Source: an uncultured Bacteroidota bacterium (GTDB lineage: Bacteria; Bacteroidota; Ignavibacteria; Ignavibacteriales; Ignavibacteriaceae). From it: a stretch of 32,000 bases of DNA. A model generated the notes under the pieces. That model was not told where the DNA came from. It did not search any database and worked only from the letters and a program-made list of their open reading frames with translations. Shown here one piece after another: positions 1,707 to 17,860 of this stretch. A program made the position numbers and the translations under genes. The stretch lies in contig CAWAJW010000015.1 in the NCBI GenBank assembly GCA_963782475.1, positions 811,007-843,006 of the forward strand. Reading direction: 5' to 3'. Each line of letters begins with the position of its first letter. Position 1 is the stretch's first letter.

Positions 1707-1832
1707 CTGACACTATGAACCTCATAATGCAATACCTCACTTCTGTTGCGTATCAGCAATCAAGATTTCTCAGTCATACCATTGAAAGCAAATTGGATTC
1801 CTTCTACCTTCGGAAGATAAATCGAAATGACA
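1707..1832 (+). repeat. Module B repeat (ctgacactatgaacctcataatgcaatacctcacttctgttgcg ... taagatttctcagtcataccattgaaagcaaattggattccttc ... gataaatcgaaatgaca)
   Basis: Near-identical copies start at 1707, 2542, 3125, 10647, 15699 and 17037. It is preceded at 1677-1706 by a purine-rich tract that is the reverse complement of the CTTCC tracts seen elsewhere. Confidence 0.85.
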
Positions 1833-1853
1833 GGGATAGCACGCAAGACCTTG

Positions 1854-1991
1854 GGGGCTGACCAAAATGCAGCACAGATTAAACGTCTTTGTTTTGGGCT
1901 TTGTAATCTGTGCGTCTGAAATTAAATCTGAATCATTAATTGTTATATCATATCAAATAATTTACAAAGATTATATTTTTTGGTCAGCCTC
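1854..1991. repeat. Module H: MITE-like / structured element with 12-14 bp terminal inverted repeats (ggctgaccaaaa ... ttttggtcagcc)
   Basis: Outer stem ggctgaccaaaa/ttttggtcagcc encloses an inner 9-bp stem gcacagatt/aatctgtgc. Copies at 1854-1991, 2688-2825 and a shorter one at 10315-10414. Confidence 0.8.
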
Positions 1992-2109
1992 ATTTGGAGT
2001 TTAATAAACGGGAAATGAGGTTAGCGGATAGAATATAATAATTATGTTAAGATGTAATTTTAATAGTTTGGTTACAAATTGATAGATAAGAATACAGATG
2101 AGGGAACAA

Positions 2110-2532
2110 GTCCCCCTTAATAAAGGGGGAACGAAGGGGGTTGTTAAATGAAGATATATTACAAAAATAATTTAAAGAATAAATCCAGAGAATTAAGGAA
2201 TAACAGTACTTTATCAGAAATACTGCTATGGAATGAATTGAAAGGACGTAAAATGCTGGGTTATCAATTCATGCGTCAAAAGCCGATAAATAAATATGTA
2301 GTAGATTTTTATTGCAGCAAATTAAAACTGGTAATAGAAATAGATGGAACCAGCCATTATGGAAAAGAGGAAGAAGATAACATCAGGCAAAAGGAATTAG
2401 AAAAATCAGGATTATCATTTTTGAGGTTTGATGATTTGGAAGTAAAGTTTAAAATGGATGAGGTGTTAAATAAAATAAAAAATTGGATGGAAAAGCACCA
2501 ACAACCCCCTCGCCCCCTTTGATAAGGGGGAC
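2110..2532 (+). mobile_element. DUF559 nuclease cassette bounded by about 35-bp imperfect terminal inverted repeats built from C5/G5 hairpins
   Basis: Left end 2110-2146 is gtcccccttaataaagggggaacgaagggggttgtta. The reverse complement of the right end 2499-2532 is gtcccccttatcaaagggggcgagggggttgttg. By hand alignment 31 of 37 positions match. The left TIR abuts the ATG and the right TIR encodes the last codons (QQPPRPL) and the stop. Confidence 0.65.
2148..2522 (+). CDS. DUF559 domain protein (Vsr-like PD-(D/E)xK endonuclease fold), 124 aa
   Basis: Family-typical pattern: LW..L.GRK..G.QF.RQ....Y.VDFYC...KLVIEIDG..H......D..R...L...G...LRF....V. Confidence 0.85.
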   Translation: MKIYYKNNLKNKSRELRNNSTLSEILLWNELKGRKMLGYQFMRQKPINKYVVDFYCSKLKLVIEIDGTSHYGKEEEDNIRQKELEKSGLSFLRFDDLEVKFKMDEVLNKIKNWMEKHQQPPRPL

Positions 2533-2541
2533 TATTGTACG

Positions 2542-2667
2542 CTGACACTATGAACCTCATAATGCAATACCTCACTTCTGTTGCGTTACAACGATTAAGA
2601 TTTCTCAATCATACCATTGAAAGCAAATTGGATTCCTTCTACCTACGGTAGATAAATCGAAATGACA
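2542..2667 (+). repeat. Module B repeat, copy 2 (start of the 835-bp segmental duplicate of 1707-2541)
   Basis: Same sequence as 1707-1832, offset 835 bp. The duplication continues through module H and the left TIR to 3019. Confidence 0.85.
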
Positions 2668-2687
2668 GGGACGCACGTAAGACCTTC

Positions 2688-2825
2688 GGGGCTGACCAAA
2701 ATGTAGCACAGATTAAACGTCTTTGTTTTGGGATTTGAAATCTGTACGTCTGTAATTAAATCTGAATCATTAATCGTTAGATCATATCATATAATTTACA
2801 AAGATTATATTATTTGGTCAGCCTC
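2688..2825. repeat. Module H, copy 2
   Basis: Same terminal inverted repeats and inner stem as 1854-1991, with a few substitutions. Confidence 0.8.
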
Positions 2826-2943
2826 ATTTGGAGTTTAATAAACGGGAAATGAGGTTAGCGGATAGAATATAATAATTATGTTAAGATGTAATTTTAATAG
2901 TTTGGTTACAAATTGATAGATAAGAATACAGATGAGGGAACAA

Positions 2944-3115
2944 GTCCCCCTTAATAAAGGGGGAACGAAGGGGGTTGTTAAATGAAGATATATTACAAAA
3001 ATAATTTAAAGAATAAATCTTAAGAATTAATTGCCGCTTACGAAAACTTGTATCTTTTTACTTGTATCTTGTGTCTTCAACCGACAACCCCCTCGCCCCC
3101 TTTGATAAGGGGGAC
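2944..3115 (+). mobile_element. ORF-less miniature derivative of the DUF559 cassette (both TIRs retained, ORF body replaced by module E)
   Basis: Left TIR 2944-2980 and right TIR 3082-3115 match those of 2110-2532. The first 13 codons (MKIYYKNNLKNKS, 2982-3020) are retained and followed by a stop. The 313-bp ORF-specific segment (2186-2498 in the full copy) is replaced by about 62 bp of module E (3020-3081). Confidence 0.7.
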
Positions 3116-3124
3116 TATTGTACG

Positions 3125-3250
3125 CTGACACTATGAACCTCATAATGCAATACCTCACTTCTGTTGCGTTACAACGATTAAGATTTCTCAGTCATACCAT
3201 TGAAAGCAAATTGGATTCCTTCTAACTTCGGTAGATAAATCGAAATGACA
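3125..3250 (+). repeat. Module B repeat, copy 3
   Basis: Direct sequence identity to 1707-1832 and 2542-2667. Confidence 0.85.
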
Positions 3251-3489
3251 GGTGTGCATGGCAGTCTCAACGAAATAAAAACGGTTAAAACCGTTCACGA
3301 GAGAAATAACATTTTCTTTAATGAGAACAACCCCGTCATGGTATACTTTGTTTAGCTACCGACGTTTAATCTTCATTTTGTTAGGCAGGTTGAGGCATGA
3401 TTCGTTATTGAATGCTGCACCAGGACAGTCTTCGACAGGCTCAGACTGACAGTATGCTGCGGTCATTGCAGCATGGTGTGATTTCGACG
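3251..3489 (+). repeat. Module F (239 bp), copy 1 of 2; multi-hairpin element
   Basis: Near-identical to 17331-17569. Contains stem aacggtt/aaccgtt, stem atgctgca/tgcagcat enclosing a C-type hairpin (gacagtcttcgacaggctcagactgac), and ctcaac/gttgag pairing. Confidence 0.8.
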
Positions 3490-3505
3490 TATGCAAAGAA
3501 AAAAG

Positions 3506-3583
3506 TGCCGCTTACGAAAACTTGTATCTTTTTACTTTTATCTTGTATCTTTCAAAAGTATCTTTTTACTTTTTTCTTGTACG
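3506..3583 (+). repeat. Module E: T-rich periodic repeat (gccgcttacgaaaacttgtatctttttacttttatcttgt...)
   Basis: Copies at 3020-3081, 3506-3583, 8864-8949, 10543-10600, 16937-16990, 17793-17820, and inverted at 15515-15629. Confidence 0.8.
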
Positions 3584-3600
3584 TTATCACGGGCATATAC

Positions 3601-4269
3601 TTGGTATTGCAAAAAGACACTTCAAAATCAGAAATACTAAAAGAAAATGAATCCTTTAATTTAGGCTTTAAAACTTTTCTTGCTGCATTTTTAGCCACCG
3701 TATTAAGTATCAGATATCTGGATGGTGAGATTGCTCTAAGAGTAATGCATTTTATTCAATCTGTCCATCCAATAAATAAAGTTACTGAAAATATACCCGA
3801 TTTACTGCCCCATTTTGTTGTTGTTGCTACAATATCGATGTGGGCTGTTTTTTTTTACAGGCTGCTCAGGAAAAAATTAGATATAAAAACCCGATTCTTA
3901 ATGCTTTCTGCTACTGTTTTACCGTTTGCATATCTCGCAAAAACAGTATTGAAATTTGTATTTGGAAGAACTTCTCCCCGGCACTGGCTTAAACATCACG
4001 ATCAGCTGTCATTTCACTGGTTCACGCATTGGAGCAGCAGCTTTCCTTCCGGACATATGATCGTATTTGCTGCACTTGGTGCTGCTATTTGGATTTACTA
4101 TCCTCAATACCGGGGATGGGTTTTAACTTTTCTTATTCTGCTGGGAGCAGCGCTAATCGGAACAGATTATCATTTCTTAAGTGATGTAATAGCAGGAGCC
4201 TACCTCGGAGTTTTAACAACATATTCTATAAAGTATTTATTTGAGAAGATAAAAATAAATTTCAGATAA
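3601..4269 (+). CDS. PAP2-superfamily phosphatase (membrane protein)
   Basis: PAP2 motifs KFVFGRTSP ... PSGH ... DYHFLSDVIAG, plus several hydrophobic helices. The ATG-defined ORF starts at 3412, but codons 1-63 are translated repeat modules F/E. There is no ATG between 3454 and 3712. I place the start at the in-frame TTG at 3601 (uncertain). Confidence 0.7.
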   Translation: MVLQKDTSKSEILKENESFNLGFKTFLAAFLATVLSIRYLDGEIALRVMHFIQSVHPINKVTENIPDLLPHFVVVATISMWAVFFYRLLRKKLDIKTRFLMLSATVLPFAYLAKTVLKFVFGRTSPRHWLKHHDQLSFHWFTHWSSSFPSGHMIVFAALGAAIWIYYPQYRGWVLTFLILLGAALIGTDYHFLSDVIAGAYLGVLTTYSIKYLFEKIKINFR

Positions 4270-4352: not shown

Positions 4353-5974
4353 GTAAACCTCACCCCCGACCCCTCTCCTTATAAAGTAGAGGGGTGGTAT
4401 GTACATTGGAGTGATAAGCAAATATTAGAAATAGTAACATTTTATTACTATCATAGCATCACCTTTTTCCAGACAGAACCTGAAATAAAAAGCTTTATCT
4501 GTCTGCCGGAGACAAGTTGAAAATGAGGTATTGCTTCCTTCTCATTTATAAGGAGAAGGAACGGAAGGATGAGGTTAGTATGCTGCAAAAATGAGGTTGC
4601 TCCCTGTGAAAAGTAAACCTCACCCCCGACCCCTCTCCTTATAAAGTAGAGGGGTGGTATGTGCATTGGAGAGATAAACGATTATATCAAAATATATCTT
4701 TTATTTATAATCTTCACATTTTTCTATTTCTAGACAACATATCAAATTAATAGTTTTTCTGAAAATGAAGGTATTGCTTCCTTCTACTTTATAAGGAGAA
4801 GGAACGAAAAGATGAGGTTAGTAAGTTGTTCAAAAGAGGTTGACAGCCAGTCAAATTAGTTCAAAAATTTTTCTCTAAATATAGATTACATGACTATCCA
4901 CTATAACAAACAATCCGAAAAAACAAAAAGAAGAAAATTAAGACGGAAATCAACTGAAGCTGAAAAACTGCTGTGGGAAAAATTAAGAGGAAGAAAACTT
5001 TCAGGACTAAAATTCAGGCGTCAATATAGTATAGCCCAATTTGTATTGGATTTCTATTGTCCGGAAAAAAGATTTGCCATAGAACTAGACGGCGGTATAC
5101 ATGAGAAAAAAGATGTGAAGAATCACGATGAGAACAGAGATGGTTTCATAGAAGGTTTTGGAATAAAAATAATAAGGATTAAAAATGAATTGGTTCTGGA
5201 TGATATTGATAGTGCGCTCGAATATATAAAGGAGCAAATATAAACTGTGTAAACCTCACCCCCGCCCCCTCTCCTTATAAAGTAGAGGGGTTCTACGCAC
5301 ATTGGAGTGAAAAGCAAATATTAAAGATAGTAACATTTTATTGCTAATCATAGCATCACCTTTTTCCAGACTGAACCTGAAATAAAAGCTTCATCTGTCT
5401 GCCGGAGACAAGTTGAAAATGAGGTTATTGCTTCCTTCTACTTTATAAGGAGAAGGAACGAAAGGATGAGGTTAGTATGCTGCAAAAATGAGATTACTCT
5501 ATCTGAAAGTTAATCTCTGAAAGTTACCTCACCCCCGACCCCTCTCCTTATAAAGTAGAGGGGTGCTATGAACATTGGAGTGATAAGCAAATATTGAAAG
5601 TAGTAACATTTTATTGGTAATCATAGCACCACCTTTTTCCAGACAGAACCTGAACAAGTTGAAAATGAGGTTATTGCTTCTTTCTCCTTTATAAGGAGAA
5701 GGAACGGAAGGATGAGGTTAGTATGCTGCAAAATGAGGTTGCTCCATGTGAAAAGTAAACCTCACCTCCGGCCCCTCTCCTTATAAAGTAGAGGGGTGGT
5801 ATGTGCATTGGAGTGATAATCAAATATTGAAAGTAGTAACATTTTATTGCTAATCATAGCATCACCTTTTTCCTGACAGAACCTGAACAAGTTGAAAATG
5901 AGGGTATTGCTTCCTTCTACTTTATAAGGAGAAGGAACGAAAGGATGAGGTTAGTATGCTGCAAAAATGAGGTT
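4353..5974 (+). repeat. Array I of module A units (about 220-260 bp each): 4353-4598, 4613-4841 (divergent), 5249-5495, 5523-5740, 5755-5974, with a DUF559 gene inserted between units 2 and 3
   Basis: Each unit runs gtaaacctcacccccgacccctctccttataaagtagaggggtggtatg ... ctgtctgccggcagac ... ttccttctcatttataaggagaaggaa ... gatgaggttagtatgctgcaaaatgaggtt. Units 4 and 5 lack the ctgtctgccggcagac palindrome. Confidence 0.9.
4890..5243 (+). CDS. DUF559 domain protein (Vsr-like endonuclease fold), 117 aa
   Basis: LW..LRGRKL.GLKFRRQ......VLDFYC...RFAIELDGG.H......D..R......G...IR..N..V. It is a paralog of 2148-2522. The stop codon is followed 5 nt later by the start of an A unit. Confidence 0.85.
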   Translation: MTIHYNKQSEKTKRRKLRRKSTEAEKLLWEKLRGRKLSGLKFRRQYSIAQFVLDFYCPEKRFAIELDGGIHEKKDVKNHDENRDGFIEGFGIKIIRIKNELVLDDIDSALEYIKEQI

Positions 5975-6181: not shown

Positions 6182-7708
6182 ATGAAAATATTCACCCTGA
6201 TATATTTTATTATAATTTTCAATGCTCCCGCATATTCCCAGGTCGTCTATCAACCGTTATGGCATGATGTGTATAATTATCTCGACCGCTTGAGTCAAAA
6301 AGGGGTAATAGAATATGACGATTTAGTCAAACCTCTCCCCAGGAAATATATTTATGAAAAACTGATTGAAGCGGAAAAAAATTCTGAGCAGTTAACTAAA
6401 TTGGAAAAAGAAGAGCTGATTTATTTCAAAAAAGAATATTTTTTTGAAAGTAAGCTGGAAGGGGATACAGCTCAATATAAAAAATCACCAAATTTTTTCG
6501 GTAAAGATGAAGCAGGCAGGTACAGGCTTTTCTCCTATAGTAATAATACTTTCAAAATAAACCTCAGCCCGATAATCGGTTATCAGCTTACGCTCCCAGG
6601 GAAAGAAAGGAACCAGAATACATGGAACGGGATTTATAGTTATGGATATTTATCTGATTTTTTAGGCTACAGCATGGATTTAAGGGTGCATAATGAGCAG
6701 GGTAATTACCTGGATCCCAATAAATATTTTACACCTGAAGAGGGAGTAATCCCTTCCGCCAGAACCGACCTGGCCTCTCACGAAAACTCTATTGACTACA
6801 GCGAGGTTAAGGGGATGGTATCTGCCGGCTGGGATTGGGGCGACATAATTTTTGGTAAAGATTTCATTACCTATGGGTATACAAAAAGCGGAAACCTGGT
6901 TCTCTCGGATAAAGCTCCATCCTTCCCTTATATCCGTATTGATGTAAATCCAATTAGCTGGCTGAAGTTCCATTACTTCCATGCCTGGCTCGCTTCAGAT
7001 GTTATAGATTCAGTGAATTTTGAAGAGGGGTTACGAACGATATACAGGAATAAATATTTCGCATGGCATTCCATTGTAGTTACTCCTGTGAAAGGACTGG
7101 ATCTTTCAATCGGCGAGTCGGTTGTCTATGCAGACCGGATCGAGCCGGTCTACCTGATACCGGTTATGTTCTTTTTCCTGGCGGACGATTTCTTAAGTAA
7201 TAGAATGGAAGGGAATAAAGGAGATGCTAATTCACAGATCTTTCTCTCGGTCAGCTCAAGGGACCATATAAAAAATACTCATTTATATGGAACTTTATTT
7301 ATCGACGAGCTAACTCTCGCAGGGCTGACGGGTTCTCTTTTGTCAAGTAATCACCATACAATGGGTGGTTCAGTATTCGGTTCAAACAGAGTCAGAACAC
7401 AACTCGGATTTACTTTAGGTGCGTCTGTCGCCGATCTGCCTGTAGAGAACCTGACCCTTACAACAGAATACACAAGAATAAATCCGTTTGTTTATCAGCA
7501 TCACGATCCCGCACAAACCTACACCAATTCCGGGTATATAATGGGAGATTGGCTTGGGTCAAATTCAGATCTCATTTATCTCAATATTAATTATAGAATT
7601 CTAAGGGGGCTGCAGGTAAACCTGTGGGGAGAGTATATCCGCAAGGGGAGTGAGAGCGACAGTCTGCAGTATGCAGATAGCACCAGCCTCCTTTTTTATA
7701 CGGATTGA
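6182..7708 (+). CDS. Wzi-like capsule-assembly outer-membrane beta-barrel protein; the C-terminal about 55 codons continue in another frame to 7875
   Basis: Signal peptide, VYQPLWHDVYNYLDRLSQKGVI N-terminal motif, long beta-rich body. After the stop at 7708 a shifted frame reads QHYKYFGLDLKYEPIHELNINAGFRTNLESDEQEDNSYLTTRTNIFSFSIYYGL, with a stop at 7873-7875. This matches the C-terminal strands of the 39-1661 copy. The shift is at a T6 run near 7690-7700. Confidence 0.75.
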   Translation: MKIFTLIYFIIIFNAPAYSQVVYQPLWHDVYNYLDRLSQKGVIEYDDLVKPLPRKYIYEKLIEAEKNSEQLTKLEKEELIYFKKEYFFESKLEGDTAQYKKSPNFFGKDEAGRYRLFSYSNNTFKINLSPIIGYQLTLPGKERNQNTWNGIYSYGYLSDFLGYSMDLRVHNEQGNYLDPNKYFTPEEGVIPSARTDLASHENSIDYSEVKGMVSAGWDWGDIIFGKDFITYGYTKSGNLVLSDKAPSFPYIRIDVNPISWLKFHYFHAWLASDVIDSVNFEEGLRTIYRNKYFAWHSIVVTPVKGLDLSIGESVVYADRIEPVYLIPVMFFFLADDFLSNRMEGNKGDANSQIFLSVSSRDHIKNTHLYGTLFIDELTLAGLTGSLLSSNHHTMGGSVFGSNRVRTQLGFTLGASVADLPVENLTLTTEYTRINPFVYQHHDPAQTYTNSGYIMGDWLGSNSDLIYLNINYRILRGLQVNLWGEYIRKGSESDSLQYADSTSLLFYTD

Positions 7709-7963
7709 ACCAGCATTATAAATATTTTGGACTCGATCTGAAATATGAACCAATCCATGAATTAAACATCAACGCAGGTTTCAGGACAAACCTAGAATCG
7801 GACGAGCAGGAAGATAATTCCTATTTAACTACTAGAACTAATATCTTTTCGTTCTCAATTTATTACGGTTTGTAGTAAAGGTTAAAGCAATTATTTTATC
7901 ATTGCATTACACTATTTGGAATTACCTCTGCCTCCGGCAGGTAAATCAAAATGACAATGTGCT

Positions 7964-8250
7964 GCGACCAAACTTCCCATCTTCCAAACTTCTGCTTTTC
8001 CGACCTCTGACCTCTGCACTATGACAGTCTTCGACAAGCTCAGACTGACAGGCACCTGCGAACAAACTTCCAATCTTCTAAACTTCCTAACTTCTGCTCT
8101 TCCGACCTCCGACCTCTGTGAGAAATCTTACATTCAACGATTAAGATTTCTCAGTCGCCAATAGATATTCCAGAATGTGCTCCTTCTACCTCCGGTAGAT
8201 AAATCGGAATGACAATGAGACAAGGTTTAAAATCAATTTGTCATTTCGAA
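7964..8250 (+). repeat. Module C/B composite: two CTTCC-rich polypyrimidine tracts, each followed by a hairpin, then a gaatgaca/tgtcattc hairpin
   Basis: Tract 7964-8019, then C hairpin 8023-8049 (gacagtcttcgacaagctcagactgac). Tract 8051-8118, then B hairpin gagaaatctta/taagatttctc at 8120-8152. Confidence 0.8.
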
Positions 8251-8260
8251 TTCCGGCTCA

Positions 8261-8832
8261 AAGGAGAAGGAAGGAAAAGATGAGGTTAGTATGCTGCAAA
8301 ATGAGGTTACTCTATCCGGAAAGTCAACCTCACCCCCGACCCCTCTCCTTATAAAGTAGAGGGGTTCTACGAACATTGGAGTGATAAGCAAATATTGAAA
8401 GCAGTAACATTTTATTGCTAATCATATCATCACCTTTTTCCTAGACAGAACCTGAAATAAAAAGCTTTATCTGTCTGCCGGCAGACAGGTTGAAAATGAG
8501 GTTATTGCTTCCTTCCCCTTTATAAGGAGAAGGAACGAAAAGATGAGGTTAGTATACTGCAAAATGAGGTTACTCTATTTGAAAGTCAACCTCACCCCCG
8601 ACCCCTCTCCTTATAAAGTAGAGGGGTGGTATGTGCATTGGAGTGATAAGCAAATATTGAAAGTAGTAACATTTTATTGCTAATCATAGCATCACCTTTT
8701 TCCTAGACAGAACCTGAAATAAAAAGCTTTATCTGTCTGCCGGCAGACAGGTTGAAAATGAGGTATTGCTTCCTTCTCATTTATAAGGAGAAGGAACGGA
8801 AGGATGAGGTTAGTATACTGCAAAATGAGGTC
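8261..8832 (+). repeat. Array II of module A: partial 3' piece 8261-8308, full units 8323-8571 and 8585-8832
   Basis: Same sequence as arrays I and III, period about 262 bp. Confidence 0.9.
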
Positions 8833-10170: not shown

Positions 10171-10314
10171 TTAGAATCTCCCGTATCAATAAGTTTTATT
10201 AATATTGAAATAAAGTTAACAAATGGTTAAACTATAAAAAAATATATTGATTTAAATGAAGAGGAGAAATGACGTGAAACAAGAGGTAGAGGATTTTACG
10301 AAATGCACACTCAA

Positions 10315-10414
10315 GAGGCTGACCAAAATGCAGCACAGATTAAACGTTTTTGTTTTGAGACTTGAAATCTGTGCGTCAAATAATTTATAAAGATTATATT
10401 TTTTGGTCAGCCTC
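10315..10414. repeat. Module H, copy 3 (internally shortened)
   Basis: gaggctgaccaaaatgcagcacagattaaacg...aatctgtgcg...ttttttggtcagcctc. Confidence 0.8.
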
Positions 10415-10542
10415 CAACGGAAAGATGAGGTTGGTAACCGGAAATGATATCAGCGGATAGAATATAAATTGGAAGATGGGAAGTTAGGAAGATTAGAAGT
10501 TAGGAATCCGGAAAATGAGAAAAAAAATTAAAGAATATATCG

Positions 10543-10886
10543 TAAGAATTAATTGCCGCTTACGAAAACTTGTTTCTTTTTACTTGTATCTTGTGTCTTC
10601 AACCAACAACCCCCTCGCCCCCTTTGATAAGGGGGACTATTGTACGCTGACACTATGAACCTCATAATGCAATACCTCACTTCTGTTGCGTTACAACGAT
10701 TAAGATTTCTCAGTCATACCAATGAAAGCAAATTGGATTCCTTCGAAATGACAGGGTGTTGCTCGTTCTGTCATTCGACGACTGAAAGGAGGAGAAATCT
10801 TACGTATCAACGATTAAGATTTCTCAGTCATACCATTGAAAGCAAATTGGATTCCTTCTACTTCCGGTAGATAAATCGAAATGACA
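10543..10886 (+). repeat. Composite E + right-TIR hairpin + B + gaaatgaca hairpin + SD-like box + B hairpin
   Basis: Same module order as 16937-17330 and (partly) 3020-3250. The ORF-track ORF 10640-10870 lies entirely within it. Confidence 0.85.
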
Positions 10887-10971
10887 AGGCGTTGTGTCGT
10901 TTCCAAGAAGCATGACTCAGACAGGACAGAGAATCCAAGCGAAATTTTCGTATACACTATCTTTTTCTTTT

Positions 10972-11196
10972 GTACTTTTTTCTTGATAAAAAAGTACTCC
11001 CGATTTTCATCGGGATAAACTCCAAATCAAGACTGCAAATAAATTACTAAAATTTTATTTCATTCCGCTACAGAAAAAGAACTCGTCCCGCCATCTATGA
11101 AGGCAAGAGGCGGGACTCAAACAGCTTTTTCTGTTTAACCTGCCTAGCCGGCAGGCAGGCGCTTCATTCCATAAAATTTTTTACGTAATTTATTTG
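10972..11196. other. Single-copy (within this window) cluster of nested perfect hairpins; candidate structured ncRNA or MITE
   Basis: Stems gtactttttt/aaaaaagtac (10972-10997) and tcccgat/atcggga (10998-11015). About 22-bp AT-rich arms at 11036-11058 and 11171-11196 enclose acagaaaaag/ctttttctgt (11070-11134), gtcccgcc/ggcgggac (11085-11116) and cctgcc/ggcagg (11139-11155). Confidence 0.5.
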
Positions 11197-11449
11197 AGGT
11201 CGAAAAGTCACAATCGTTGATATTTCGTTAAGAAAAGATTTCCCTGTCGCCAATACATATTCCGGAATGTGCTCCTTCGAAATGACAGGGTGTTGCTCGT
11301 TCTGTCATTTCGAATCCCAACTGATACTGTTAAACTTATAGTTGTTGGGTGAGAACTCTTTCGTAAGATTTCTCGCTCATCAATGGGTCATCCAATTTAA
11401 AGTTCGCTCTACCTCCGGTAGATAAATTGAAATGACAATATGCTATGAT

Positions 11450-11885
11450 CAATCTTCCGCTCTCCTATCTTCTGCTTTTCCAACCTCAACCTCTGCACTA
11501 TGACAGTCTTCGACAAGCTCAGACTGACAGAACGGACACAGACTGACGGTGTGTTGTGGTCATATTGAGCTTGTCGAAATATGACCCGCTATTGAGTGTA
11601 GCAGCGGGACAGTCTTCGATAAACTCAGACTGACAGGTGACTTCACAAATCTTCCAAACTTCCGCTCTTCCTAGACAATCAAGATTTCAAGATTCTTTTA
11701 AATTGAATGAATTGTTGAATGATTGAATGAATGAATGATTGAATGTTCGTTGATCTCTGCCTTCCTATCTTCCTAACATCTGCTTTTCTGTTCTTCCGAC
11801 CTCTGACCTCTCACTATACTACGACAGTCTTCGACAAGCTCAGACTGACAGGGCGCTTCCTAACTTCTGCTCTTCTGACCGAAGG
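11450..11885 (+). repeat. Module D composite, copy 1: polypyrimidine tract, C hairpins, ggtcatat/atatgacc and cccgct/agcggg hairpins, TGAA-rich microsatellite
   Basis: Colinear with 13279-13630 and 13871-14187. The microsatellite at 11701-11747 is shorter than in the other two copies. Confidence 0.8.
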
Positions 11886-12064
11886 TACCGCTAACTTTAT
11901 TTTGTGAAAGTTCCATTGTATGATATGCACAAATTGCTTCAACATTAATGAGGGGATTTGGGGATTCAGAGAATAGACTTCGTCTTACAATCTCAATAGC
12001 TCATTGTCTTAGGCTTTCTTCTTCAACCTAAAAATCTTCAATAACATATTGGATTGGCTCTATT

Positions 12065-12927: not shown

Positions 12928-13278
12928 TGGTCATAATATTGATGTGTATATAGGTATCAAAGTTTCAATTACTATTTATATGCCAGGAAATGATGAGTCA
13001 GTAAATTCACTTTTTGGAATAAACACCAATGTTCGTAATTGAAGAAGTGCTTTGTTTTCTCTTTATTGCAAAAAGAATTTTTAAGATGTAAGAAAGAGGG
13101 AGGAAGTGAAGTGGGGGATGACCCGTTTCGTAATAAGTTTCTCATTGACAGTCTTCGACATGCATGTTGGGTAGGGATGGTCCGCTGCATTTACATACAC
13201 ATGACAGTCTTCGACAAGCTCAGACTGACAATGCGCGCCTGCGACCAGACTTTCAAACTTCAATTCTATAAGATGTGC

Positions 13279-14402
13279 ACTATGACAGTCTTCGACAAGC
13301 TCAGACTGACGGAACGGACACAGGCTGACGGTGTTTTGTGGTCATATTGAGCTTGTCGAAATATGACCCGCTATTGAGTTTAGCAGCGGGACAGTCTTCG
13401 ATAAACTCAGACTGACAGGTGACTTCACAAATCTTCCAAACTTCCGCTCTAGACAATCAAGATTTCAAGATTCTTTTAAATTGAATGAATGAATTGTTGA
13501 ATTGTTGAATGATTGAATGATTGAATGAATGAATGTTCGTTGATCTCTACCTTCCCATCTTCCTAACTTCCGCTCTTCTAACCTCTGACCTCTGCACTAT
13601 GACAGTCTTCGACAAGCTCAGACTGACAGGGTGCCCGCGACCAAACTTCCAATCTTCTAAACTTCCTAACTTCTGCTCTTCCGACCTCTGACCTCTGTGA
13701 GAAATCTTACATTCAACGATTAAGATTTCTCAGTCATACCAATGAAAGCAAATTGGATTCCTTCGAAATGACAATGTGTCTTTCCACCTTCAGATAAATC
13801 GAAATGACAATATGCTACGAACAAACTTCCCATCTTCCTAACTTCCGCTCTTCTAACCTCTGACCTCTGCACTATGACAGTCTTCGACAAGCTCAGACTG
13901 ACGGAACGGACACAGGCTGACGGTGTTTTGTGGTCATATTGAGCTTGTCGAAATATGACCCGCTATTGAGTTTAGCAGCGGGACAGTCTTCGATAAACTC
14001 AGACTGACAGGTGACTTCACAAATCTTCCAAACTTCCGCTCTAGACAATCAAGATTTCAAGATTCTTTTGAAATTGAATGAATGAATTGTTGAATTGTTG
14101 AATGATTGAATGATTGAATGAATGAATGTTCGTTGATCTCTACCTTCCCATCTTCCTAACTTCTGCTCTTCCGACCTCTGACCTCTGTGAGAAATCTTAC
14201 ATTCAACGATTAAGATTTCTCAGTCATACCAATGAAAGCAAATTGGATTCCTTCGAAATGACAATGTGTCTTTCCACCTTCAGATAAATCGAAATGACAA
14301 TATGCTACGAACAAACTTCCCATCTTCCTAACTTCCGCTCTTCTAACCTCTGACCTCTGCACTATGACAGTCTTCGACAAGCTCAGACTGACAGGGTGCC
14401 CG
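13279..14402 (+). repeat. Tandem duplication of a D/C/B composite: copy 13279-13870 (592 bp), copy 13871-14360 (490 bp), partial third copy 14361-14402
   Basis: actatgacagtcttcgacaagctcagactgacggaacggacacaggctgacgg recurs at 13279 and 13871, and its first part at 14361. The second copy lacks about 100 bp lying between two cttcctaacttc tracts. Microsatellites at 13478-13536 and 14072-14128. Confidence 0.85.
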
Positions 14403-15797: not shown

Positions 15798-16912
15798 TAC
15801 CCAAGAAAATTGACACAAATAGGAAAGGGTAACAAAAAGAAAGAAATCAATATTATTAAATTTCATTTAAAATGTGTCAACCTTTTTTGGGATAAGTCAA
15901 TCCTGAAAGTAAACCTCACCCCCGACCCCTCTCCTTATAAAGTAGAGGGGTGGTATGTGCATTGGAGTGATAAGCAAATATTGAAAGTAGTAACATTTTA
16001 TTGCTAATCATAGCATCACCTTTTTTCTGACAGAACATGAAATAAAAAGCTTTATCTGTCTGCCGGCAGACAAGTTGAAAATGAGGTATTGCTTCCTTCT
16101 CATTTATAAGGAGAAGGAACAGAAGGATGAGGTTAGTATACTGCAAAATGAGGTTACCCTATCTGAAAGTGTTTTGACCCAAGAAAGTTGACACAAATAG
16201 GAAAGGGTAGCAAAAAGAAAGAAATCAATATTATTAATTTTATTTAAAATGTGTCAACCTTTTTTGGGATAAGTCAATCCTGAAAGTAAACCTCACCCCC
16301 GACCCCTCTCCTTATAAAGTAGAGGGGTGGTATGTGCATTGGAGTGATAAGCAAATATTGAAAGTAGTAACATTTTATTGCTAATCATAGCATCACCTTT
16401 TTTCTGACAGAACCTGAAATAAAAAGCTTTATCTGTCTGCCGGCAGACAAGTTGAAAATGAGGTATTGCTTCCTTCTCATTTATAAGGAGAAGGAACGAA
16501 AAGATGAGGTTAGCATACTGCAAAATGAGGTTACCCTATCTGAAAGTGTTTTGACCCAAGAAAGTTGACACAAATAGGAAAGGGTAGCAAAAAGAAAGAA
16601 ATCAATATTATTAAATTTATTTAAAATGTGTCAACCTTTTTTGGGATAAGTCAATCCTGAAAGTAAACCTCACCCCCGACCCCTCTCCTTATAAAGTAGA
16701 GGGGTGGTATGTGCATTGGAGTGATAAGCAAATATTGAAAGTAGTAACATTTTATTGCTAATCATAGCATCACCTTTTTTCTGACAGAACATGAAATAAA
16801 AAACTTTATCTGTCTGCCGGCAGACAAGTTGAAAATGAGGTATTGCTTCCTTCTCATTTATAAGGAGAAGGAACGAAAAGATGAGGTTAGCATACTGCAA
16901 AATGAGGTCAGC
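15798..16912. repeat. Array III: 377-bp tandem repeat x3, each unit = module G (about 130 bp) + module A (about 247 bp)
   Basis: gtaaacctcaccccc starts at 15909, 16286 and 16663 (exact 377-bp spacing). Copies differ by only a few substitutions and one 1-nt indel. G contains the inverted repeat cccaagaaagttgacaca ... tgtgtcaaccttttttggg. Confidence 0.95.
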
Positions 16913-16936
16913 GGATAAAATATGACAATCCCGGAA

Positions 16937-17330
16937 AATTAATTGCCGCTTACGAAAACTTGTATCTTTTTACTTGTATCTTGTGTCTTCAACAGACAAC
17001 CCCCTCGCCCCCTTTGATAAGGGGGACTATTGTACGCTGACACTATGAACCTCATAATGCAATACCTCACTTCTGTAGCGTATCAGCGATCAAGATTTCT
17101 CAGTCATCTCTATGAAAGCAAATTGGATTCCTTCTACCTGCGGCAGATAAATCGAAATGACAAAGTGTTGCTCGTTTTGTCATTCGACGACTGAAAGGAG
17201 GAGAAATCTTACGAACAACGATCAAGATTTCTCAGTCATACCATTGAAAGCAAATTGGATTCCTTCTACCTTCGGTAGATAAATCGAAATGATAATACGT
17301 TCCTCTACCTTCAGATAAATCGAAATGACA
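16937..17330 (+). repeat. Composite E + right-TIR hairpin + B + gaaatgaca hairpin + SD-like box + B hairpin (second copy of the 10543-10886 architecture)
   Basis: Colinear with 10543-10886. The right-TIR-type hairpin ccccctttgataaggggg lies at about 17005-17027. Confidence 0.85.
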
Positions 17331-17569
17331 GGCGTGCATGGCAGTCTCAACGAAATAAAAACGGTTAAAACCGTTCACGAGAGGAAGAGCATTTCCTTTA
17401 ATGAGAACAACCCCGTCATGGTAAGCTATGTTTAACTACCGACGTTTAATATTCATTTTGTTAGGCAGGTTGAGGCATGATTCGTTATTGAATGCTGCAC
17501 CGGGACAGTCTTCGACAAGCTCAGACTGACAGTACGCTGCGGTCATTGCAGCATGGTGTCATTTCGACG
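17331..17569 (+). repeat. Module F (239 bp), copy 2
   Basis: Near-identical to 3251-3489, including the internal hairpins. Confidence 0.8.
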
Positions 17570-17860
17570 ACTGAAAGGAGGAGAAATCTTACGTAAGATT
17601 TCTCGCTCACCTATGAGTCATCCAATTTGGAGTTCGCTTCGAAATGACAATTACGATTACCGGCTTCATTGCTGCATTGGATTGATATGAGCTGAAACGT
17701 ATCCCGTAGTTCAGTTCTCCAGAACTGACTTTCTAAAGTGAGACGAAAAAGAGGTTAAAGACAAAAGAAAAAAGTGTAGTTCACCGAAACCTGCGGCTTA
17801 CGAAAACTTGTGTCTTCAACCGGGAGATAGCAGGAGTATGATAAGTTACTGTTAAGTGAG

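Follow-up and report, generated by a model that had tools for sequence, protein, structure and literature searches.

What is a small nuclease gene doing between the units of a noncoding repeat array? The question is raised by a 32,000-nt stretch of DNA from an uncultured Ignavibacteriaceae bacterium (Bacteroidota; GenBank assembly GCA_963782475.1, contig CAWAJW010000015.1, positions 811,007–843,006 of the forward strand; hereafter the window), in which a gene for a DUF559-domain protein (DUF559-2, 4890–5243) lies within a run of hairpin-bearing repeats, here called A units (4356–5952). A paralog, DUF559-1 (2148–2522), lies among further hairpins of the same window. A preliminary description of the sequence had proposed a nuclease–repeat partnership modeled on repetitive extragenic palindromes (REPs) and their RAYT transposases, with DUF559 driving or policing the spread of the hairpins. 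The evidence exceeds that idea: gene and hairpins together are a mobile cassette with gene-less derivatives resembling miniature inverted-repeat transposable elements (MITEs), and the cassette is able to sit in frame in essential genes. With a probability of about 60%, we read the region as tandem MITE-like units with a DUF559 gene and a short leader precisely inserted in one linker, a local instance of a widespread family of nuclease–hairpin mobile cassettes.

The DUF559-2 gene within the A-unit array

That DUF559-2 occupies the spacer between units 2 and 3 of a five-unit array, as the preliminary description had it, was upheld by sequence reading, repeat finders and Pfam. All features are given in window coordinates on the plus strand. 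The five units, ~200–220 nt each (194–222 nt across copies), were placed by sequence reading and repeat finders at 4356–4576 (unit 1), 4616–4819 (unit 2, the most diverged copy), 5252–5473 (unit 3), 5526–5719 (unit 4) and 5758–5952 (unit 5). Each opens with AACCTCACCCCCGA and then a hairpin (CCCCTCT-11-AGAGGGG), and closes with a second hairpin (TTCCTTCTC-9-GAGAAGGAA) and then CGGAAGGATGAGGTT; in unit 1, the hairpins lie at 4370–4394 and 4535–4561, two of those quoted in the preliminary description, all of which are real. The 5′ hairpin region is an inverted copy of the 3′ region, yielding imperfect terminal inverted repeats (TIRs) of ~40 nt with ~80% identity, whose alignment scores of 35–48 compare with 13 ± 3 (maximum 28) in shuffles. 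Folded as single-stranded DNA, the unit pairs end to end (z = −3.5). These inverted ends and this folding mark the A unit as a MITE-like element whose TIRs contain hairpins, and it shares further properties with MITEs, being short, noncoding and present in ten copies. A known RNA family was ruled out, as neither Rfam (E ≤ 1) nor tRNA searches found a match in the window.

The insertion itself can be read by direct comparison of junctions. The linker between units 1 and 2 (4577–4615, agtatgctgcaaaaatgaggttg|ctcc|ctgtgaaaagta), read from the sequence, served as the unoccupied reference. Empty linkers run ...aaaatgaggttg|ctcc|ctgtgaaaagtaAACCTCA, whereas the occupied linker runs ...aaaagaggttg|47-nt leader + open reading frame (ORF) + a|ctgtgtaAACCTCA, and the tip AACCTCA of unit 3, which begins at 5252, 8 nt past the DUF559-2 stop codon (5241–5243), is preceded by the usual linker remnant 'ctgtgta'. 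DUF559-2 with its leader (~4843–5244) is thus a clean insertion in the unit 2/3 linker, where it substitutes for the linker core. The leader was found once in the window and holds the sequence that, within this region, comes closest to a sigma-70 promoter (TTGACA-17-AAAAAT, 4840–4868).

The A units extend beyond this array; five more were found, all without a DUF559 gene, namely units 6–7 (8326–8811, with a partial unit at 8261–8288) and units 8–10 (15912–16888), bringing the window to ten A units in three clusters, alongside six type-1 hairpins (described below). Units 8–10 form a 377-nt tandem array with a nested 115-nt TIR element in each linker. Over 15799–16908, this array alternates an A unit with the nested element, which has ~17-nt TIRs (CCCAAGAAAGTTGACAC / GTGTCAACCTTTTTTGGG) and CTGAAAGT at both sides. 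At the position that the element takes in that array, the linker between units 3 and 4 (5499–5528) reads 'tctgaaagt-taatc-tctgaaagt'; this motif, with 'tctgaaagt' duplicated in the segment before unit 4 (5499–5525), looks like an excision footprint of the 115-nt element. A second ATGAGGTT motif is present in the A-unit linkers.

The paralogous DUF559-1 gene (2148–2522, 124 amino acids) is enclosed by hairpins of its own type. Directly upstream (2111–2143) stands a type-1 hairpin, TCCCCCTT-aata-AAGGGGGA (2111–2130), followed by the tip ACGAAGGGGGTTG; its inverted partner (2502–2530) consists of the tip CAACCCCCTCG and the hairpin CCCCCTT-tgat-AAGGGGG (2513–2530), and the final codons and stop of the gene lie within this downstream tip and hairpin, with the stop in the hairpin loop. 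Type-1 tips read CAACCCCC/GGGGGTTG and A-unit tips AACCTCA.../...TGAGGTT; the tip-to-tip palindrome was reconstructed as AAGGGGGTTG|CAACCCCCT. An internally deleted version of the cassette (2945–3113), ~800 nt downstream of DUF559-1, still has its upstream hairpin, 38 nt from the start of the ORF (2982–3019) and the 3′ tip and hairpin around an unrelated 60-nt module, and related copies lie at ~10525–10640 and 16930–17030. The two versions belong to a tandem duplication (1707–3254) with a period of ~834 nt, made up of a 130-nt B unit, a 300-nt C unit and the DUF559-1 cassette, the second copy having lost the gene body of the cassette. The B unit occurs eight times in the window.

The DUF559-2 product (117 amino acids) is a predicted nuclease of the Vsr/EDxHD fold. 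Pfam PF04480 (DUF559) matched the ORF at 4890–5243 with E = 1e-30; both window proteins, 39% identical to each other, scored far above the family cut-off (106 and 111 bits versus 20.6), and a match to NCBIfam PRK09767 fell under its equivalog cut-off. Six residues (E65, D67, G68, H71, D80 and R83) were invariant in 28 sequences, and dN/dS values of 0.08–0.15 against relatives indicate purifying selection. Searching an AlphaFold2 model (pLDDT 86) with Foldseek returned the DUF559 structure 3HRL first (E = 2e-6), followed by 3R3P, the catalytic domain of the homing endonuclease I-Bth0305I (E = 5e-4, probability 1.0, TM 0.62–0.73). Judged by this model, I-Bth0305I is the closest characterized structural relative, and DUF559 has a predicted EDxHD/Vsr-like catalytic domain. 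I-Bth0305I is a homodimer with a footprint of ~60 bp that cuts a pseudopalindrome (PMC3239194).

A fold shared with Vsr raises the alternative that DUF559 is a passenger, for example a Vsr-like repair or defense nuclease kept by host selection, while the hairpin units are moved by another enzyme or by host recombination. Purifying selection suits such a host function equally well, A units have multiplied in the window without the gene in cis, and the literature treats DUF559 as Vsr-like or as unknown in function. A superfamily survey reported no horizontal transfer, and JGI annotates these genes as 'very-short-patch-repair endonuclease'. Pfam matches to the DUF559 ORFs were solely DUF559, MTES_1575 and DUF2726, the Vsr model PF03852 being absent from the reported matches. 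Against a passenger, no cytosine methyltransferase gene adjoins either window gene, the neighbors being repeats, a PAP2-family ORF and Wzi-like ORFs. Together with the evidence from relatives given below, this leads us to regard the passenger explanation as rather unlikely.

Pairing of DUF559 genes with hairpins across phyla

A general DUF559–hairpin partnership, which the preliminary description had proposed to check by co-localization across phyla, was borne out in a homologue scan restricted to one genome per species. This returned 54 loci (29–76% identity) from Ignavibacteria, Bacteroidota, Betaproteobacteria, Armatimonadota, Saccharibacteria, Clostridia, Margulisiibacteriota and others, and hairpins with a C-run and a G-run arm and a tip stand beside nearly all of their stand-alone DUF559 genes. 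For a controlled comparison, 38 stand-alone homologues from at least eight phyla were set against 205 control ORFs from the same loci, counting only strict hairpins (perfect stem of at least 7 bp, at least five G:C pairs, homopurine/homopyrimidine arms, at most 120 nt from the gene end). Such hairpins occurred at either end of 25/38 DUF559 homologues versus 11/205 controls (Fisher p = 2e-16), and at both ends of 13/38 versus 0/205 (Fisher p = 4.5e-12). In the tight hairpin pairs seen here (390–670 nt apart), DUF559 was the one family present between the hairpins. The association is far beyond chance in many phyla, and hairpin type follows nuclease clade.

The same comparison bears on the plainest explanation, that the hairpins are ordinary terminators or RNA-stabilizing elements of a small intergenic gene, or that gene and hairpins are thrown together where junk DNA piles up. 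Hairpins are common at the 3′ ends of genes, and the intergenic DNA of the window is saturated with many repeat families. These hairpins, on the other hand, have no T tracts and were not called terminator-like, they form inverted pairs at both gene ends in a manner that none of the control ORFs shares, and in relatives they bound the domain inside coding sequences. The terminator reading was rejected by the control-ORF test and the non-terminator-like hairpins, and the explanation as a whole, largely refuted by that test and the in-frame cassettes, is in our estimate highly improbable.

The preliminary description had further proposed to compare the paralogs with their flanking hairpins for signs of co-evolution. 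Each window paralog has its own hairpin type, and relatives keep it. Metagenomic relatives of DUF559-1 (56–76% identity) retain exactly the type-1 hairpin CCCCCTT/AAGGGGG with the GGGGGTTG tip, relatives of DUF559-2 retain a CCCCTCTCC/GGAGAGGGG hairpin with a GGGGTGAGGT tip, and more distant clades have different tips. Across 71 loci, protein identity correlated with flank similarity (Mantel r = 0.26, p ≤ 5e-4). This covariation, and the finding that DUF559 is the only ORF of the tight hairpin-bounded cassettes seen here, argue against a passenger gene. One related metagenome contig contains two genes with 80% identity to DUF559-2; each has the 3′ end of a hairpin unit on one side and, on the other, an A-like unit beginning with its 5′ end, and one of the DUF559 ORFs of this contig runs into the hairpin, acquiring the terminus ..QTSPPTPLLIK. 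Termini of this kind, with ..TSPPSPLLNKERGKRGEV and MWGEV.. as further examples, occur in many homologues and agree, as do the in-frame peptides described below, with the statement in the preliminary description that DUF559 proteins often end in what look like translated hairpins.

Units also occur beside the genes in other forms. Extra gene-less copies of the flanking hairpin were found within ~10 kb at 9/25 loci. C-run/G-run hairpin units stand on both sides of the DUF559 copies of Picosynechococcus PCC 7002 and Azospirillum lipoferum 4B, and one stands downstream of that of Sinorhizobium K101. Frameshifted copies that are still between hairpin units (L014 1065–1504, L057 5920–6342 and L076 1319–1721) are decaying cassettes; along with the two decayed copies described below (L054/L056), they are what would be expected of selfish genes and speak against host-selected cargo. 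At one locus (L074 1859–2107), the hairpin units form a short-period tandem array by the gene (five copies, 62-nt period), and at another (L012 6310–6900) four in-frame repeats 'TSPLQGSGEKNT..ISPLEAGGKEHPKNK' connect DUF559 to the next gene.

Escherichia coli K-12 ycjD (NC_000913.3, 1351240–1351840) has similar flanks. Upstream of the gene is a perfect palindrome, CACCTCATTCTGACAA-11-TTGTCAGAATGAGGTG, with 16-bp arms and CACCTCA/TGAGGTG ends; the stop codon lies inside a C-run/G-run sequence, tCACCCTCTCCCtgaaagagcGAGGGGGcag, which by eye resembles an imperfect hairpin; and a degenerate duplicate of the gene 3′ end and hairpin follows downstream.

DUF559 cassettes inside coding genes

At 11 of the 54 loci, all in relatives and none in the window, the DUF559 domain lacks start and stop codons of its own and reads in frame with a host gene (L034, L036, L050, L039, L040, L045, L054, L056, L031, L019 and L012). 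The domain is nested in IleS, LeuS (two loci), UvrA, MetH (two loci), Acs (two loci) and CinA of Bacteroidota, and is fused upstream of HisF (one locus) and of a hexapeptide transferase (one locus); Pfam confirmed nesting or fusion in the nine proteins scanned. At the edges of most of these domains stand hairpin-encoded peptides (PPAPEGGA and PPSGAGGA, for example), which the Acs copies have lost. Cultured hosts of in-frame copies include Flavobacterium sp. DGU11 (L040), Emticicia soli ZZ-4 (L039) and Leeuwenhoekiella nanhaiensis, and the inserts in MetH, UvrA and LeuS measure some 150–190 amino acids. Outward-facing TIRs remain in the in-frame copies with surviving hairpins, being clear in five (L019, L039, L040, L045 and L050) and degenerate in three (L031, L034 and L036); they are 25–35 nt long in copies other than the two Flavobacterium MetH cassettes described below. 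The Acs copies (L054/L056) are decayed. Intein and intron readings of these copies were rejected, as no intein (Hint) family was among the Pfam matches of the nine proteins and no Rfam intron was found in the window. Host-useful cargo makes little sense for copies that sit in essential genes without a start or stop, and this is a further point against a passenger.

Movement is most directly visible in two Flavobacterium MetH genes whose proteins are ~93% identical and which carry the cassette at different sites. One gene is filled after LLPYIE, where the other is empty; after NDDDIE, the other gene is filled and the first has a gene-less hairpin doublet, whose right end is the same as that of the cassette and which retains ~15 nt of the subterminal region. 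The TIRs of both cassettes are perfect over 27 nt (AGCCCCCCCCGCCCCCGAAGGGGGAGC). A protein search with the Flavobacterium domain showed it attached to four distinct MetH domains, as well as to MetRS-like, GcpE, RNase H and alpha/beta-hydrolase sequences. Gene-less hairpin peptides, such as 'SNSPLLGRGGGGE' and 'GPLTPKGG...APHSGAGGAG', occur within the same host proteins (MetH and LeuS of relatives), and one DUF559 homologue, flanked at either end by half a doublet, is located between trpB and trpA. Gene and hairpins thus move together, hairpin–gene–hairpin being present or absent as a block, also in frame inside essential genes, and gene-less units with the same ends are dispersed, sometimes exactly where a relative has the full cassette. 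Cassettes whose ends match gene-less units were identified at L003 and L040/L045, and deletion derivatives, namely the deleted DUF559-1 cassette and the Flavobacterium MetH doublet, retain gene ends. A phage or plasmid vehicle is unlikely, given that relatives were absent from viral contigs and near-absent from phage records (1/50,697) and plasmids (39/72,556, mostly chromids).

These observations also bear on the possibility that DUF559 is a domesticated single-copy nuclease that manages the repeats for its host in strict REP/RAYT style. The dispersal of gene-less flanking repeats in nearby intergenic regions and their REPIN-like doublet structure would fit such a role, but several paralogs share a locus (in the window and in the related contig L001), the enzyme is not a Y1 transposase, and cassette positions differ between close relatives; differing sites and residence in coding genes are how a mobile gene behaves, rather than a host gene fixed in place. 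We consider domestication improbable, and the policing of repeats by DUF559 suggested in the preliminary description found no support.

How the cassettes would move can be outlined conditionally. The nuclease, probably a homodimer, may recognize and cut the palindromic hairpin/tip ends or the unit junctions, and repair would then copy cassette and units in a homing-like manner, unless movement were by cut and paste; A units would be served in trans as nonautonomous partners or targets. The nuclease as driver of mobility is what we infer from the cassettes, and in our best reading the A units are gene-less partners of the cassette family. The units occur in two arrangements. In the first, a classic TIR cassette, tips point outward (L003 and the in-frame copies with surviving TIRs); in the second, unit–gene–unit, they point toward the gene (both window genes, most Ignavibacteria, Betaproteobacteria, Saccharibacteria and probably PCC 7002). 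Homing into a doublet spacer or into a tandem-doublet linker could give rise to both.

Several points weigh against the cassette reading. The two opposite arrangements cannot both be produced by one simple transposition model. Neither A-unit ends nor the MetH sites, filled or empty, showed a convincing target-site duplication, and neither target-site duplications nor clean excision footprints of DUF559 cassettes were found. The window holds two intact DUF559 genes versus ten A units, and no remnant of DUF559-2 was found inside the A units, which are therefore not deletion derivatives of that gene, a derivation we rejected. The ycjD palindrome occurs once per genome (matched in 3378/5426 genomes), so a DUF559 gene is able to persist without a repeat family, as the passenger explanation would have it. 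A Caulobacter DUF559 protein has been reported as a Vsr-like chromosomal nuclease (PMC12907096). Finally, any binding or cutting of the hairpins by DUF559 is putative.

Window context, known systems and implications

The two DUF559 genes are not, as had been stated, the sole ORFs in the repeat DNA: a PAP2-family ORF (3412–4269) and Wzi-like (capsule assembly) ORFs lie between. The annotated start of the PAP2-like ORF is overlapped by a 267-nt repeat (3233–3499 versus 17313–17579, 93% identical); the first ~30 codons of this ORF are probably repeat DNA, and its real start probably lies further downstream. Of the three Wzi-like ORFs (577–981, 1011–1661 and 6182–7708), the first two look like one gene in two pieces. 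Wzi-like and DUF559 genes alternate in the related contig L001 as they do in the window, and L001 also has an insertion sequence (DDE transposase). Repeat mosaics fill most other intergenic regions (7930–8260, 10280–12060, 13000–14400 and 17040–17860), and further families include 'cagtcttcgacaagctcagactgaca' modules, GGAAGATGAGAAGTTA 16-mers, TGAA/ATTGAATG microsatellites and 'gataaatcgaaatgaca' units.

The proposed likeness to REP/RAYT systems held for the layout and failed for the parts. As with REPINs and RAYTs, a small nuclease gene is boxed by a dispersed hairpin repeat that also occurs gene-less, often as inverted doublets, and repeat type is matched to nuclease lineage. RAYTs are reported to be Y1 (HUH) transposases of the IS200/IS605 type that act on single-stranded hairpins with GTAG/CGTC tags (PMC3733652). 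DUF559, by contrast, is a Vsr/EDxHD-fold PD-(D/E)XK nuclease with no Y1 (HUH) transposase domain by Pfam, the tips are AACCTCA-like with no GTAG/CGTC tag by the palindrome, the gene is multicopy and mobile, and units also lie inside coding genes. With a different enzyme and different repeat tags, the system is not a member of the REP/RAYT–REPIN group, though built alike.

Transposons with MITEs offer a second parallel in their terminal inverted repeats, their short gene-less units with the same ends and their internal-deletion derivatives with subterminal gene sequence, but here no known transposase family and no target-site duplication were found, tips face the gene in many copies and A-unit interiors are unrelated to the gene. 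EDxHD homing endonuclease genes share the nuclease fold, presence or absence as a block at a site and decayed copies, and the palindromic flank would suit a homodimer. I-Bth0305I, however, resides in a group I intron and has extra DNA-binding domains and one conserved target, whereas DUF559 has no intron or intein, is free-standing or translated with its host, occupies many sites and is nearly always found with hairpin repeats. The Vsr very-short-patch repair endonuclease belongs to the same fold superfamily but differs in the PF03852 and methyltransferase results given above and in the mobile genomic behavior of DUF559. Rickettsia palindromic elements (RPEs) are likewise in-frame palindromic repeats tolerated as extra peptide, as seen here in MetH and LeuS and, more widely, in the conserved IleS, UvrA, Acs and CinA ORFs of relatives. 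RPEs reportedly encode nothing and are not known to have a driver; the largest DUF559–hairpin versions, unlike RPEs, encode a nuclease, and the window has no in-frame copy.

DUF559 cassettes with C-run/G-run hairpins and a short complementary tip are apparently an undescribed family: the literature searched on DUF559, EDxHD nucleases, Vsr with in-frame or palindromic insertions, RPEs in Bacteroidetes and MITEs in Flavobacterium, within an incomplete coverage of journals, held no description of the association. Tentatively, and at slightly less than even odds, we extend the reading beyond the window. DUF559 nucleases would then mobilize an unrecognized, multi-phylum class of elements, each a Vsr-fold nuclease gene between C-run/G-run hairpin ends, that seeds REP- and MITE-like repeats in Ignavibacteria, Bacteroidota, cyanobacteria and proteobacteria. 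Such elements would also colonize essential genes in frame, with neither intron nor intein, and the host protein would be made with the nuclease as an inserted domain. In E. coli, YcjD would be what is left of one of them, a fossil.

For DUF559, a very widespread domain whose function is unknown and of which YcjD is a member, the cassettes offer a concrete, testable role. To our knowledge, the hairpin repeats of Bacteroidota, Ignavibacteria and cyanobacteria have not been linked to any enzyme; if the reading is true, abundant hairpin repeats would have a named driver, or at least a constant companion. The cassettes in IleS, LeuS, UvrA and MetH would then be a bacterial nuclease-encoding selfish element that lives inside essential proteins without splicing, and the in-frame cassettes bear on the origin of RPE-like insertions. 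Such insertions also confuse and inflate annotation, for instance when genes are split, when 'endonuclease' fusions are called or when termini take odd PLxKGG-like forms. Should DUF559 prove to be a small homodimeric nuclease whose targets are long palindromes, it may be of interest to tool builders.

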